Assembly: GCA_026713605.1 (NCBI GenBank)
Contig: JAPOOC010000004.1
Coordinates: 1-53,831 of the forward strand
DNA: 53,831 nucleotides
Origin: Candidatus Kaiserbacteria bacterium
Lineage (GTDB): Bacteria > Patescibacteriota > Minisyncoccia > Phycocordibacterales > JABAAK01
Direction: 5' to 3'
Shown: in pieces, positions 1,076 to 5,680 of the stretch
Layout of the letters: each line of letters opens with the position of its first letter
Position numbering within the stretch: position 1 is the stretch's first letter
The notes under the pieces: generated by a model
The model's database searches: none
Told to the model about the DNA's origin: nothing
Seen by the model: only the letters and a program-made list of their open reading frames with translations
Program-made: the position numbers and the translations under genes

Positions 1076-2404
1076 ATGAAAACTATCTTGACGGTACTTT
1101 TCACATCCATATTCGTGTCCGCCGCACTAGCACACACAGACCCCATCACATCCATTGGCTTGAGGGTGCTTGAAGACCACGGAGTACAGAAGAGAGTGGT
1201 TGACGGAGAGACGACAGAGTTGGATTGGCATACCCTCTCATACACTGCCGTAGGGACAAGTGAGGAGACCGAGTTCTCTACGCCGCGACAAACAAGCGGA
1301 CATTGGCATCCTGAGAAAACGAACAAGAGAGTATATCAACACACTGATACCCATGCGCATAGTGAGGTAAACCATGCGCATGACAACTATGTGAGTCACA
1401 CGCATCCAGGCGTTGACGGATACCCACATTTTCATTCGGAAAGTTGGAAGGAGCATTATCACCACGATCATGCTGGTGTTGAAATTAAAATAGAAGTTGC
1501 CGATCCTGTCGTGGGCAAGGTGGAAAATGACCCTGCGGTAAAGATTGGACTCGGCACAATAGCACCGCCGGGGCAGGTCCCCAGCCCTGACACACGACCA
1601 AGCGCTGAAACGCCACCTACACCGACAACAGAGACAGCGCCACAGCCGACGGGAACAGCAGCCGAGGACACTTCAACGACAATCGTTCAGTCAGCAGTGG
1701 ACACACAACCGACAGGAAGGGTGCAACCCACAGCGGAAACGCCGACAGCAGGTGCGACACCACAGCAGGGACCACATCCTACGGAGCAAAGCGAGCCACC
1801 AACTCCTGAACCTCAAAGTCCTCTAATAGTGACAGAGTACATGGTTCGGGATTGGTCGATGTTCGGCGGGGGCGGCCAACCACAGTGGGTGGAGGTATAT
1901 AATCCAAATGACACCCCGGTAAACCTTGACGGGTATGTATTTCAATATGCAGCTCGCAAGTTTATCAATCACCCGGTTAAGATCATGAGCGTTGCAATCG
2001 GTGAAGGGGAAATAGAGGGTTACGGCACTGCGATTTTTGCTACCAGCAAGATCAGATTCACAAAATACAGACAAGCGGGCATCAGTGAATCTCAGGTATA
2101 TGCACTGCAGATGCCCAATGTCTTGAAAAGAGGGTGGTGTATCAAAGATGCACAAGGAGAGATCGTTCACGCGATAGGAGAAGCGTTCGACTCTTTGTAT
2201 AGACCTGTCGCGCCACTACATCAAGAGGGTGGCAAGCGAGTATCCCATCATGTGGTACAAAGCGAACCGCCTGCAGATGACTACTATTACGGTAGTCGGG
2301 TTGACATCGGACACCCTGGATTTCACGAACCCATGGTCCCGAAAGCACCCACCGCACCCAAAGTCAAAAAGATTTTGACATGGGGGTCGCTTAAAAAGAG
2401 GTGA
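1076..2404 (+). CDS. secreted protein: signal peptide, His-rich region, Pro/Thr linker, lamin-tail-like domain, C-terminal TWGxLK motif
   Basis: SD AAAGGAGG at 1061; signal peptide ending ALA; LIVTEYM...PQWVEVYNP..VNLDGY resembles a lamin-tail domain; ends KILTWGSLKKR. Confidence 0.8.
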   Translation: MKTILTVLFTSIFVSAALAHTDPITSIGLRVLEDHGVQKRVVDGETTELDWHTLSYTAVGTSEETEFSTPRQTSGHWHPEKTNKRVYQHTDTHAHSEVNHAHDNYVSHTHPGVDGYPHFHSESWKEHYHHDHAGVEIKIEVADPVVGKVENDPAVKIGLGTIAPPGQVPSPDTRPSAETPPTPTTETAPQPTGTAAEDTSTTIVQSAVDTQPTGRVQPTAETPTAGATPQQGPHPTEQSEPPTPEPQSPLIVTEYMVRDWSMFGGGGQPQWVEVYNPNDTPVNLDGYVFQYAARKFINHPVKIMSVAIGEGEIEGYGTAIFATSKIRFTKYRQAGISESQVYALQMPNVLKRGWCIKDAQGEIVHAIGEAFDSLYRPVAPLHQEGGKRVSHHVVQSEPPADDYYYGSRVDIGHPGFHEPMVPKAPTAPKVKKILTWGSLKKR

Positions 2405-2475
2405 AGCATTCCCCCATCTTTGCACGCATCGGCGACAGTCGGTGAGTCGCAATCGTTTCTTTTCAATTAACACAA

Positions 2476-2507
2476 GGGCGCAACGCATGTTGCGCCCACT
2501 TTTATTT
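2476..2507 (+). terminator. intrinsic terminator hairpin
   Basis: GGGCGCAAC-GCAT-GTTGCGCCC followed by ACTTTATTT, between convergent genes. Confidence 0.65.
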
Positions 2508-2531
2508 CCTCTGCTGTACAACAAATCTTTA

Positions 2532-3947
2532 CTATGTACCCCTCTTTTTCACCACCGTACTGATACCATTAGCATCTATAACTTCATAGCCGAGTTCGTT
2601 AATACGAGTACGAAGTGCATCAGCGGTTGAATAATCCTTGTCGGCGCGAGCGGTATTGCGCTGAACGAGGAGATCTTGAACCTCCGGCGGGATTATCACC
2701 TGCTTACCCCTCTGCTTCGGGCGACAGAGAATGCCGAGTACACGATCCGCATAGCGGAGCGTGTTTCTTTTGCTAATAGGGGTAAGGGAAGTGTCACGGA
2801 GGATAGCATGTACCGTTGCCAGCACCTTTGCAGTGTTAAGGTCATCCGCAATAGCGGCATCAACTGCCGCACAATGCGCCGCATTGCGTTCAACATTGAG
2901 ATACGAAAGGAGGGAGTGGGGAAGGGCAGCGTACTCCTTGTGCAGACGAAACAGCGCCGTTTGGGCAGAATCAAGCGCTGCAAAAGAAAATGAGAGAGGA
3001 GTACGATACGATGCTTGCAGGAAGAGGTAGCGAAGAGCAAGTGGGTGGTACTCACGCTGCTCAAGGTCGTCAATAGTGTAAGTATTGCCAAGTGATTTTG
3101 ACAACTTCTCGCTACCCATAGTGAGAAAGGCGACATGCATCCAAAGGTTTGCAAACACAGTATCAGACGCACCTTCACTCTGAGCGATTTCATTATTGTG
3201 ATGCACGGCAATGTGATCCATACCACCGGTGTGGATGTCAATAGTCGTGCCGAGCAGTTTCATCGCCATCGCAGAACACTCTATATGCCAGCCAGGAAAG
3301 CCACGACCCCAAGGCGAATCCCATTCCTGCTGGCGAGTCACCCCGTCTGGCGTCCGCTTCCAAAGAGCAAAATCATGCGGGTGTTTTTTGCCGGCAACGC
3401 GCTGTATGCGCGCATGCTCATCACTTTCTTCAGTGTTCGGCAATCCGAGCGCACCGTAGGGTTTGTACGCCTGCGTGTCAAAGTAGATACCATCCGCAAT
3501 GTCATAGGTATATCCTTTTTGTTCCAACTGCTGTGTCAGCGCTATTTGCTCCTGGATATAGTGCGTGGCACGAGGAAAGCGATAACGGTTTGTTTTGATA
3601 TTCAATTTTTTTAAGTCAGCGAGAAAGAGGTCGCCAAAGCGGGCAGTGATTGCTTCTGCCGCCTGGTTTTCCTGCGCCGCCTGCTTCTCCACCTTATCTT
3701 CACCAGCGTCAGCATCATCAGTGAGATGCCCGACATCAGTAAAGTTGATAACATGGTTTGGGGAGTAACCAAAATGGCGCAACGCACGATGTAAAGTATC
3801 AGCAAACACATACGCGCGCATGTTGCCAATGTGTGCCGCTTGGTAGAGGGTTGGTCCGCAAGAATAAATACACACTTGTCGCCCGACGAGCGGAGTGAGC
3901 GGACGCAATGTTTTGGTTTGAGTGTCGTAGAGTTCAATAAGACGCAT
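2532..3947 (-). CDS. cysS: cysteine--tRNA ligase
   Basis: YSCGPT, HIGN, DFALWK, PWGRGFPGWHIECSAM, KLSKS motifs; start taken at MRLIELYDT. Confidence 0.97.
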   Translation of the reverse strand: MRLIELYDTQTKTLRPLTPLVGRQVCIYSCGPTLYQAAHIGNMRAYVFADTLHRALRHFGYSPNHVINFTDVGHLTDDADAGEDKVEKQAAQENQAAEAITARFGDLFLADLKKLNIKTNRYRFPRATHYIQEQIALTQQLEQKGYTYDIADGIYFDTQAYKPYGALGLPNTEESDEHARIQRVAGKKHPHDFALWKRTPDGVTRQQEWDSPWGRGFPGWHIECSAMAMKLLGTTIDIHTGGMDHIAVHHNNEIAQSEGASDTVFANLWMHVAFLTMGSEKLSKSLGNTYTIDDLEQREYHPLALRYLFLQASYRTPLSFSFAALDSAQTALFRLHKEYAALPHSLLSYLNVERNAAHCAAVDAAIADDLNTAKVLATVHAILRDTSLTPISKRNTLRYADRVLGILCRPKQRGKQVIIPPEVQDLLVQRNTARADKDYSTADALRTRINELGYEVIDANGISTVVKKRGT

Positions 3948-4003
3948 ACAAAATGTGGACTGAGTAGTATACTTAGTATGCCATAATGCTATACTTAATA
4001 TAT

Positions 4004-5680
4004 ATGAGCGAAACAAAGAAACGCACAACGAAAAAAACGGCCGCAAAAAAAGTCGTGCGCAAAAGGGCAAAGAAGAAAACAGCGACAACAACACGAAGAA
4101 CGCGGGCAAAAAAAAGTGCCGTTAAAAAAACAAAAAAGACAGCAAGAAGTGTGGGAGTAGAAGTACCAATACAGCGCGACAAGGAGAAAGGCGGCATCCC
4201 AAGCAACGGCGATGAAATGTCTATTACCAGAAAGATGTTGACCGAAACAGGATCAAAAAGGCGGATCAGTTTGCAACAGTGTATGAGCGGCCTATATCGA
4301 GTTGCCCGCGCATGCCAGCCGAGGAGTACCGCCGGTGCCATCGGCATTTTCCTCTTGGGAGTACTGATTGGTATTTTTGCACTAATCGGCACAGTATATG
4401 TCAGCAAAAACGGTACGCTGCTTCGGCTACTGGTCGGTGCTGAAGTACTAGACATTAACGGAGTTGCGATACGAGTGGAAGAGGAGATTGATTCTTCATT
4501 TAGAAACCTGCTCGCCAGCGATGTACCAAGCGACTTTAAAGATGTTAACCTGCATGACTTTTGGCAAGTGTGGCGACTCATCGAAGAATCATATGTGCCA
4601 CCACCCGAAAAAGTGACGAATGGGATTGCCACAGAAGGCGACGATATACTCAGCCGAGACGCGCTGATTACCGGCGCTATAAAGGGGCTAACGCTCGCAA
4701 CCAAAGATCGGTATACAAACTTCTTCCTCCCAAAAGACGCTGATGACTTTGAGGATGAAGTACTCAATGGCGAAATTGACGGCATCGGTGCCTACCTCAC
4801 CATCAATGATAACGATGTGCTTGAAGTGGCAAGACCAATTGACGATGGCCCCGCCGACAAGGCAGGACTACGCGCCGGCGATCTCATTATGACAATTGAC
4901 GGTGTAGACAGTTCAGAATACAACTTATCCGAGGCGGCAGACAACATTCGCGGACCACGAGGCACAACAGTAATACTAGAGATTTACCGACCAATTCTTG
5001 AAGAAGATTTAGAAATCGCCATCGTCAGGGATCGGGTAGAAATCCCGACCGTGGAGACCGAGGTGCGGGACGGTGTGTTTATAATAAAGCTCTCAACCTT
5101 TACCAAGATCACCCCGAAAGCATTTGCGGCAGCACTGCAGGAGTTTGTGGAAACAGCAAACGCTGGCGGCCCAAACCGCATCCTTCTGGATATGCGTGGC
5201 AACATGGGGGGCATTTTGTCAGTGTCGGTGTATGTCGCCGGACTATTCCTGCCACCAGAATCTCCCGTTCTCTATGAGTACGCAGGTACAGAAAAATTGA
5301 AGGTATACAAAACAGAAGAGCCGGCATTCCAAAACGGCGTTCTGCCAAAAATAACCATACTCGTTGACGGCGCAACCGCATCAGCAGCAGAGATATTAGC
5401 AGAAGCGTTACGACACTACGATGTCGCAGACATTGTCGGCACAAAAACCCTCGGAAAAGGATCAGTCCAGGCGATAAGACCGGTCGGTAGCGATAACGCA
5501 CTCCTCAAGATAACCGTCGCGCACTGGCTCACACCGGCAAAAGAATCAATCGGCGGGGAAGGGGTTACCCCTGATGTAGATTATCAAGAAGAGTTAGAGA
5601 ACCTATACAAAGAAGACCCTGAAACAGACACCGACGAAGTCGCCCTCAAAAAGGCGATAGCACACCTCATGCAGAAGTAA
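4004..5680 (+). CDS. ctpA: S41 family carboxy-terminal protease (PDZ) with Lys-rich N-terminal extension
   Basis: TM helix, PDZ (GIGA...PADKAGLRAGD), LDMRGNMGG, TASAAE, GKGSVQ. Confidence 0.9.
   Translation: MSETKKRTTKKTAAKKVVRKRAKKKTATTTRRTRAKKSAVKKTKKTARSVGVEVPIQRDKEKGGIPSNGDEMSITRKMLTETGSKRRISLQQCMSGLYRVARACQPRSTAGAIGIFLLGVLIGIFALIGTVYVSKNGTLLRLLVGAEVLDINGVAIRVEEEIDSSFRNLLASDVPSDFKDVNLHDFWQVWRLIEESYVPPPEKVTNGIATEGDDILSRDALITGAIKGLTLATKDRYTNFFLPKDADDFEDEVLNGEIDGIGAYLTINDNDVLEVARPIDDGPADKAGLRAGDLIMTIDGVDSSEYNLSEAADNIRGPRGTTVILEIYRPILEEDLEIAIVRDRVEIPTVETEVRDGVFIIKLSTFTKITPKAFAAALQEFVETANAGGPNRILLDMRGNMGGILSVSVYVAGLFLPPESPVLYEYAGTEKLKVYKTEEPAFQNGVLPKITILVDGATASAAEILAEALRHYDVADIVGTKTLGKGSVQAIRPVGSDNALLKITVAHWLTPAKESIGGEGVTPDVDYQEELENLYKEDPETDTDEVALKKAIAHLMQK

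Follow-up and report, generated by a model that had tools for sequence, protein, structure and literature searches.

To our knowledge, the hosts of environmental bacteria of the candidate phyla radiation (CPR, or Patescibacteria) are almost all unknown, and no host is established for sponge-associated CPR lineages in the literature that we searched. Can a single foreign gene point to one? The question is raised by the window studied here, the whole stretch of 53,831 nt that makes up contig C3 of the genome G000 (coordinates 1–53,831 refer to it throughout). A gene on its forward strand (1076–2404, including the stop codon) encodes a predicted secreted, histidine-rich protein of 442 amino acids, which ends in a lamin tail domain (LTD) and a short basic tail; we have termed it the LTD-tail gene. 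The original prediction for this locus took domain and tail to be typical of Candidatus Poribacteria and related diderm lineages, proposed transfer from a Poribacteria-like cell in a sponge and saw in that cell a candidate host. On the evidence given below, the best reading is a single-gene horizontal transfer from a Poribacteria donor into a sponge-associated CPR bacterium, which we consider probable, while the Poribacteria origin of the gene, taken by itself, is highly likely. A transfer of an LTD-tail gene into CPR is not described in the literature searched. It gives a concrete candidate partner, Poribacteria, and a concrete molecule that bears the donor's C-terminal tag.

The LTD-tail protein and its fold

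The reading frame of the LTD-tail gene is intact and starts with ATG, with a Shine-Dalgarno sequence (GGAGG, 1064–1068) located 7 nt on the 5′ side of the start codon; a longer frame from a TTG codon is possible (1052–2404, + strand). Residues 1–19 (1076–1132) read as a signal peptide (MKTILTVLFTSIFVSAALA followed by HTD, i.e., ...AALA/HTD) and form a helix over residues 2–19 in the AlphaFold2 (AF2) model. Here and below, signal peptides were judged by eye or with a crude regular expression, without a trained predictor. The predicted cleavage would leave a His at the N-terminus of the mature protein. A His-rich stretch with HxH motifs follows at residues 76–132 (1301–1471; 15 His in 57 residues), and then a linker rich in Pro, Thr and Gln at residues 150–245 (1523–1810; 20 P, 20 T and 8 Q in 96 residues), the block-mean pLDDT of which lies between 39 and 76 in the AF2 model and climbs only near the domain boundary. 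The lamin-tail-type beta-sandwich domain is assigned to residues 246–425 (1811–2350) from Pfam LTD, AF2, Foldseek and family matches, and the remaining residues, 426–442 (2351–2401), constitute a basic, Trp-containing tail (...KVKKILTWGSLKKR; ...PKAPTAPKVKKILTWGSLKKR), the Poribacteria-type C-terminal tag discussed below. The motifs cited in the original prediction are found in this C-terminal half: TEYMVRDW from residue 253, then PQWVEVYNPN and then YYYGSRVDIGHPG, with APTAPKVKKILTWGSLKKR at the C-terminus.

The Pfam model for the LTD (PF00932) matches residues 246–325 only, with E = 4.3e-6 and 27.5 bits against a cut-off of 34.3 bits, and does not reach its gathering score. PF00932 is also listed in the precomputed collection annotation of an identical protein (P0002), and the NCBIfam scan returned nothing relevant. 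The AF2 model, built on an 85-sequence family alignment, gives a pLDDT above 90 over residues ~245–425, all beta, a disordered N-terminal half and a short helix of moderate confidence at residues 435–440. When the model was compared with the PDB by Foldseek, the best 13 matches were all Ig-folds of lamin A/C, B1 or B2 (E from 2.4e-4 to 2e-2; probability 0.99–1.00; TM-score by target 0.41–0.65), and the structure matches of the domain in the Atlas are LTD clusters. The C-terminal domain, weakly recognised by sequence, is thus clear by its modelled fold: a lamin-type Ig-like beta-sandwich. The lamin-tail-like domain, the tail, the strong Shine-Dalgarno sequence and the tRNA-Ile neighbour, all pointed out in the original prediction, were confirmed in every detail (open reading frame (ORF), motifs, GGAGG, ARAGORN call and fold).

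A family and a C-terminal tail of Poribacteria

In a word-based search of 5.8 billion proteins, 7387 candidates were scored and five had E ≤ 1e-3: one is identical to the LTD-tail protein and the other four are 39–46% identical over the C-terminal 43–63% of the query. An exhaustive HMMER search with residues 240–442 against 1.84 billion cluster representatives yielded 319 matches at E ≤ 1e-3, of which 94 have E ≤ 1e-10 and 34 have E ≤ 1e-30. Among the short matches listed (about 100–650 amino acids), the domain (query positions 1–203) in most cases reaches the end of the protein, where the family form of the tail is AP.AP...[KR]xK..(T/L)W(G/A)xLK plus 0–8 residues. The family profile scores the G000 protein at E = 1.2e-82.

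The G000 protein conforms to the family plan throughout: signal peptide, His-rich N-terminal part, Pro-rich linker, C-terminal LTD-type domain and tail. As in G000, a His follows a small residue ([AGSCT]-H) after the signal peptide in 51 of the 80 members with a crude signal peptide, which suggests that the mature N-terminal His is conserved in the family. For the 70 members in which the domain is preceded by 80 or more residues, the preceding region has a median His content of 4.8%, or 7.9% in the first half, and a Pro content of 15% in the second. The motif YV[SQ]HTH is common to G000 and the proteins P0016 and P0021; the N-terminal parts are otherwise hypervariable. In a subset of the family (P0005, P0006, P0029, P0031, P0035 and P0004), which includes copies from labelled Poribacteria genomes, Cys takes the place of the His after the signal peptide (...SGSAC/EDGE, ...AYAC); these proteins may be lipoproteins or have a disulfide-bonded N-terminus.

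The distribution of the family points to one phylum. A scan of GTDB with a single peptide pattern, covering one genome per species (185,579 species), gave 25 relatives at 23 loci, and all 15 near full-length loci (L002–L016) are titled Candidatus Poribacteria; ten of them lie on one chromosome, OZ242029.1 of the Poribacteria genome G459. The eight partial matches cover the LTD core only and stem from Poribacteria (four), Myxococcota/Myxococcales (three) and an “uncultured bacterium” (one). A six-frame profile search detected 12 paralogues in G459 and, in four further Poribacteria genomes, one or two full-length copies apiece.

The tail itself can be traced beyond the LTD. In an alignment of 85 family members, P425 and W436 never vary and K440 is at least 90% conserved; G000 carries all three, and the tail, judged by this alignment, is conserved and not a product of chance. 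In four further Poribacteria genomes, one with a sponge bin as its title and another with a coral bin, large multi-LTD proteins share the tail (e.g., ...GKLTMIWGDLKKSH, ...GKHLITWGTLKGNR and ...GKITTKWGTLKNNR). Four regions of G459, together 43 kb, contain 19 ORFs of 238–390 amino acids that end in ...GKLxxTWGxLK plus 0–4 residues, nearly all of them with a signal-peptide-like N-terminus and often in tandem arrays. A Pfam scan of 15 of these ORFs recognised five Laminin_G_3 domains, four PD40 propellers, two Kelch propellers and one CBM9; of the remaining three, one has weak lectin-like matches below the cut-offs and two have none. Tail-bearing Poribacteria loci are L096–L099 of G459 and, in addition, L018, L019, L021, L070, L071 and L078.

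The G459 regions were chosen with a DNA-pattern search that is not frame-aware and is too noisy for counts: the tail pattern against its reversed control matched 204/135 times in G459, 180/100 times in G461 and 6/9 times in G000. Counted on frames, 4 of the 2393 stop-to-stop ORFs of at least 80 amino acids in G000 end in W..[LIVM]K plus at most 8 residues: the LTD-tail gene, DNA polymerase I (by chance) and two ORFs of 111 and 123 amino acids that are unlikely to be genes. The genome-wide count that the original prediction had called for thus assigns the tail, as read from these frames, to the LTD-tail gene only.

The domain flavour and the K..TWG.LK ending are therefore typical of Poribacteria, as the original prediction had supposed, with 15 out of 15 full-length GTDB loci and a tail that recurs on LamG, Kelch, PD40, CBM9 and multi-LTD proteins. 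When one short C-terminal element recurs on secreted domains that are otherwise unrelated, this is the mark of a sorting or anchoring tag, and we regard the TWGxLK tail as a candidate new tag of this kind in the Poribacteria secretome, a candidate new signal in a major, uncultured phylum of sponge symbionts. Models for the C-terminal domain (CTD) of the type IX secretion system (T9SS), such as TIGR04183, did not match the LTD-tail protein in Pfam or NCBIfam at E ≤ 1, nor did those of NCBIfam match the last 84 residues or five Poribacteria tail proteins at E ≤ 10. Moreover, the tail matched no model in Pfam or NCBIfam, NCBIfam CTERM models included, and we found no description of it in the full-text literature searched on Poribacteria with lamin tail or C-terminal sorting signals.

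The position of the G000 protein within the family was assessed with a quick IQ-TREE phylogeny of 108 full-domain rows, with SH-aLRT support only and no bootstrap. Rows had to cover at least 165 profile positions and to reach position 198 or beyond, which left 113, reduced to 108 by deduplication: G000, 31 Poribacteria-labelled rows and 76 unlabelled metagenome rows, made up of 87 database proteins (that of G000 included) and 21 ORFs from Poribacteria loci. P0002 and P0155, both identical to the query, were omitted, and a row was labelled Poribacteria by its record title, by its origin in the phylum of G459 or by an identity of at least 95% to such an ORF. Poribacteria-labelled rows are present in every deep clade, with the one leaf of G000 in their midst; the group formed by this leaf and its seven closest neighbours is sister, at a support of 89, to a clade with 13 Poribacteria rows. 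The LTD-tail gene of G000 is accordingly placed by this tree within Poribacteria diversity under any root outside its own branch; as G000 is a single leaf, the nestedness rests on rooting.

The recipient genome and the site of the gene

G000 comprises 594,491 bases in 11 contigs and is 92% complete with 0.08% contamination. Absence of ribosomal protein L30 is a hallmark of CPR; this protein (PF00327) was not found in G000 and is present in 13 of 14 control genomes. The listed genomes of a 400-genome sample of the phylum measure 0.5–1.5 Mb. Size, missing L30 and a phylum of small genomes are consistent with G000 being a CPR/Patescibacteria bacterium, and fit what the original prediction had assumed.

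Searches of its relatives indicate that the gene does not belong to the lineage by descent. We searched 60 related genomes (five of the same genus, six of the same family and 49 of the same order) with the family profile and found no member of the family. Matches at E ≤ 1e-3 occur in 23 of the 60, all weak (E ≥ 1.5e-6) and confined to profile positions 6–145 of 203, so that the tail is never reached. In the wider phylum sample, 3 of 401 genomes, G000 included, match at E ≤ 1e-8; the other two matches are partial, and no family member was found in the 400 sampled genomes of the phylum. The weak matches in the relatives constitute a separate, native LTD family of 470–530 amino acids, in which the LTD directly follows the signal peptide and the tail motif is absent. 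These native proteins differ from the LTD-tail protein in their N-terminal LTD (profile positions ~10–145) and in their C-terminus, a hydrophobic stretch in several. Many genomes of the order encode such a protein; those at loci L026–L032 (genomes G055, G037, G032, G053, G007, G028 and G059) show, around residue 320, another segment that weakly resembles the LTD. The native 470–530-residue protein was not detected in G000 by profile search. By these comparisons, the LTD-tail gene is foreign to the sampled part of its own phylum, in line with the original prediction, and its best hits are not broadly distributed CPR proteins.

Both flanks of the gene are native. On the left, ARAGORN identifies a tRNA-Glu(TTC) gene (114–190, − strand) in a segment (1–215) that is 84–85% identical to G003 and G002, the two closest complete relatives of G000 among the five genomes of its genus (G001–G005), and a tRNA-Ile(GAT) gene (717–792, − strand), 284 nt upstream of the LTD-tail gene, which marks the left boundary of the insert. 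Native DNA extends to about position 807: the segment 718–807 shares 94% identity with G002 and 92% with G003, and 718–794 (77 nt) is 100% identical to G001. The non-coding upstream part of the insert (808–1075, + strand, GC 0.41) has no DNA match in G002 or G003 past 807. On the right, a GC-rich hairpin with T-runs on both strands (2476–2497), which resembles a terminator, separates the LTD-tail gene from the convergent cysS gene (2532–4109, − strand), 63–84% identical at the amino acid level to its counterparts in all five same-genus genomes. Divergent from cysS, an S41 peptidase gene (ctpA; 3986–5680, + strand) follows, and the pair cysS–peptidase is kept in the same five genomes. The longest cysS frame (TTG, 525 amino acids) overlaps the peptidase ORF by about 120 nt; the relatives align from cysS residue ~48–53, and the real start is therefore probably near 3950–3960. 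Since similarity to the relatives ends at 807 and resumes within cysS, the insert measures at most ~1.7 kb (~808–2531) and holds a single gene. Elsewhere on the left, a segment of 52 nt (239–290), within an ORF of 136 amino acids (225–635) between the two tRNA genes, matches three sites in G001 at 88–90%; it may be a small dispersed repeat or an RNA element.

The gene sits at a rearranged site. In G002 and G003, the tRNA-Ile gene is followed by a block B, corresponding to 32.7–40.6 kb of contig C7 of G000, and the 3′ end of cysS by a block A, corresponding to 25.6–32.5 kb of C7. In G000, blocks A and B are contiguous on C7 (junction at ~32.53–32.73 kb), as are tRNA-Ile, the LTD-tail gene and cysS on C3. 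The arrangement of these blocks is that of a single inversion of about 177 kb (in G002 coordinates) between G000 and G002/G003; its breakpoints lie at tRNA-Ile and at the cysS 3′ end, and both junctions are assembled. The LTD-tail gene is located exactly at one junction, and the other, on C7, carries nothing extra. In the more distant G001, G004 and G005, both sites have different neighbours again, and either arrangement may be the ancestral one. G002 and G003 do not carry the gene anywhere, and the simplest history is thus a gain in the G000 lineage after its split from them.

A gene just 1 kb from the start of a contig could owe its position to an artefact of assembly or binning, by which a Poribacteria fragment was misjoined to the start of a CPR contig. 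The first ~190 bases lend themselves to such an error: the segment 1–190, with the tRNA-Glu gene, has 5–10 times the depth of the rest, with variants, small insertions and many loose contig ends. Other organisms in the samples evidently have this tRNA gene too, and the contig probably ends there for this reason. Native CPR DNA on both sides of the gene would, however, require two false joins, and independent data speak against either. The segment 1–4200 was found in five sponge-metagenome runs at no less than 81% of the sampled words, two of these possibly being source runs and none of the runs listed an RNA run, and we aligned Logan contigs of four other runs. The left junction is bridged with 0 differences by contigs of X3 (112–1327) and X5 (112–1198), and the right junction into cysS, likewise with 0 differences, by contigs of X3 (1986–3888), X4 (2241–4200) and X6 (2249–2829). 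The depth in X3 is about 6.8 in the flanks and most of the gene, and 0.63 in one intragenic bin between two contigs. In all, contigs of three runs besides the possible source bridge one or both junctions without differences and near flank depth; the bridging runs may stem from one sampling campaign. Furthermore, the identical protein is encoded on contigs of 127,849, 53,831 and 15,481 bases, the longest from another assembly, and C7 contains the assembled reciprocal junction of the inversion. A chimeric or wrongly binned fragment is therefore very unlikely, and the chimeric junctions that the original prediction had named as a refutation were not found.

Weighing the transfer and the role of the protein

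Several observations weigh against a transfer from Poribacteria, or leave it less sharply drawn. In the tree, G000 is grouped with seven proteins without an organism label (P0003, P0004, P0007, P0008, P0025, P0045 and P0047) at a weak SH-aLRT support of 80–84, and its closest relative is 53–54% identical over the domain. Divergent members in other phyla could have escaped the single-pattern GTDB scan, and the count within the phylum of Poribacteria, where at least 11 of 176 genomes match at E ≤ 1e-20, is a lower bound, with at most 17 candidates scored per genome. The N-terminal part (residues 20–160) retrieved only the protein itself among 65 candidates of the word-based search, and the 38 ORFs that flank the family genes at ten Poribacteria loci include no recurring partner and no hint of a role. 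The tail is modelled at moderate confidence (block-mean pLDDT of 82, 64 and 58 from residue 421). No mobile-element gene or target-site duplication flanks the LTD-tail gene; a weak 19-nt inverted repeat (84%) at 1044–1062 and 2456–2474 may be due to chance. Finally, with a GC3 of 0.484 against 0.462 ± 0.066 for the genome and a codon use between those of G000 and G459, the gene is not marked as foreign; donor and recipient are alike in composition, and GC, GC3 and the codon-use log ratio are therefore uninformative.

The unlabelled neighbours raise the question of whether the donor was another, unsampled lineage with the family, possibly one represented by those very neighbours. All of the closest neighbours of G000 in the tree, and 76 of its 108 rows, are without an organism label, the GTDB scan relied on one peptide pattern, and the Atlas feature search lists LTD clusters of Fermentibacterota and Eiseniibacteriota as look-alikes of the domain (as leads only). 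Against this stand the labels that are available: every labelled full-length member is from Poribacteria (15 of 15 loci, and 31 rows spread over all deep clades). Moreover, the tail is found generally on secreted proteins of Poribacteria, across unrelated folds. When JGI metagenomes were scanned for the context of the nearest neighbours, four loci were returned (best identity 48%), none closer than the known relatives; three further metagenome loci with full-length copies, on contigs of 62–203 kb, have flanking ORFs that barely resemble G000 (one weak match at 32% identity). We give a donor outside Poribacteria little chance. The phylogenetic check suggested in the original prediction is thus borne out as far as nesting in Poribacteria diversity is concerned, with the root outside the branch of G000, and falls short for the immediate neighbours, which are unlabelled and weakly supported. 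With the nearest relative at 53–54% identity, no close donor has been sampled; either the transfer is not a recent one or the gene is fast-evolving.

A transferred gene may also be a decaying passenger without function in the CPR cell. It is present as a single copy without partner genes, and the machinery to read the tail is possibly missing from this cell. Useless DNA is usually lost from highly streamlined genomes, though, and that of G000, at 0.59 Mb, is highly streamlined; the frame of 442 codons is intact, with a strong Shine-Dalgarno sequence, a canonical signal peptide and a terminator, all family-invariant residues are kept, and the sequence is identical in every assembly seen. We consider a functionless passenger unlikely. 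It is likely that the LTD-tail protein is exported and functional in the CPR cell.

Under the Poribacteria transfer that we favour, the CPR cell would export the protein by its own Sec pathway. The module of LTD and tail would then hold it on a cell envelope, an anchoring that we propose tentatively and consider somewhat doubtful, and the His-rich end, extended on the flexible Pro/Thr linker, could bind a divalent metal or another ligand, as its composition suggests. The tail is the donor's own tag, which makes the Poribacteria envelope the most interesting target. If the tail acts as the donor's address tag, the module may dock on that envelope and the protein may serve attachment. Such an attachment would work by molecular mimicry: the LTD-plus-TWGxLK module, which in Poribacteria would direct secreted proteins to a site of the envelope, would be secreted by the CPR bacterium and dock on Poribacteria. 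We regard this mechanism as unlikely in the present state of the evidence, and the same holds for a binding that is specific to Poribacteria cells. If true, the mimicry would mean that a sponge CPR lineage has Poribacteria as its host. The original prediction had considered that the protein might be routed through the export system of the host, but we found nothing in favour of this: the protein itself already carries a Sec signal peptide, and machinery that would read the tail is not known from any organism.

The transfer may also be real and reflect nothing but the shared habitat of the sponge mesohyl, the gene having arrived by free DNA, phage or vesicles; Poribacteria would then not be the host, and the protein would serve the CPR cell itself, e.g., in metal capture at the surface. 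We give this explanation close to an even chance. Between the gene and any Poribacteria copy sampled, the divergence is about 50%, and the His-rich part suggests a self-contained, metal-binding role. In a study on groundwater Patescibacteria, transfer pairs of this kind fit host–symbiont contact and a shared niche alike and cannot separate the two (PMC12455944). What tells for contact, suggestive as it is and no more, is the kind of gene retained: not a metabolic one but a surface or secreted protein with every invariant position of the donor-specific tail, as expected at a cell–cell interface. The transfer thus shows a shared habitat or contact at some time, and not that Poribacteria are the physical host, which is a good, testable hypothesis and not a result.

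Both ends of the protein can be compared with known systems. Pneumococcal histidine-triad proteins and the histidine-brace proteins (LPMOs, CopC) are extracellular, metal-binding proteins that are His-rich or have an N-terminal His. The LTD-tail family is like them in being secreted, in its clusters of the HxH and HxxHxH type and in the mature N-terminal His predicted for 51 of 80 members; it differs in that we found no sequence or fold similarity to them and in that its N-terminal part is modelled as disordered. With the secreted bacterial proteins that carry the LTD of Pfam (PF00932), it shares the Ig-like beta-sandwich and, as in many of these, secretion and fusion to other modules (Atlas clusters). 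In contrast to the Pfam LTD, the Poribacteria-type domain spans ~180 residues (the Pfam model has 109 positions) and is always located at the extreme C-terminus, followed by the conserved AP.AP...K..W.xLK tail, and the Poribacteria-type LTD-tail proteins are a distinct subfamily.

The tail follows the pattern of the T9SS CTD, of PEP-CTERM/exosortase and of LPXTG/sortase: a short C-terminal element on unrelated secreted domains within one phylum, combined with N-terminal Sec signals. Unlike LPXTG and PEP-CTERM, it is without a hydrophobic transmembrane helix, only 3–8 mostly polar or basic residues following W-G-x-L-K, and at ~17 residues it is far shorter than the T9SS CTD, a beta-sandwich of ~80 residues. 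If it is indeed a tag, TWGxLK would add a new type to the known C-terminal sorting or anchoring signals, one with neither a transmembrane helix nor a T9SS-type domain. As for the transfer, cross-phylum events are used here as a hint of association in the same way as in the partner inference for Patescibacteria described in PMC12455944; in comparison with the genes treated there, which are metabolic or regulatory, the gene of G000 encodes a surface or secreted protein that bears the C-terminal tag of its donor, and its setting is a sponge.

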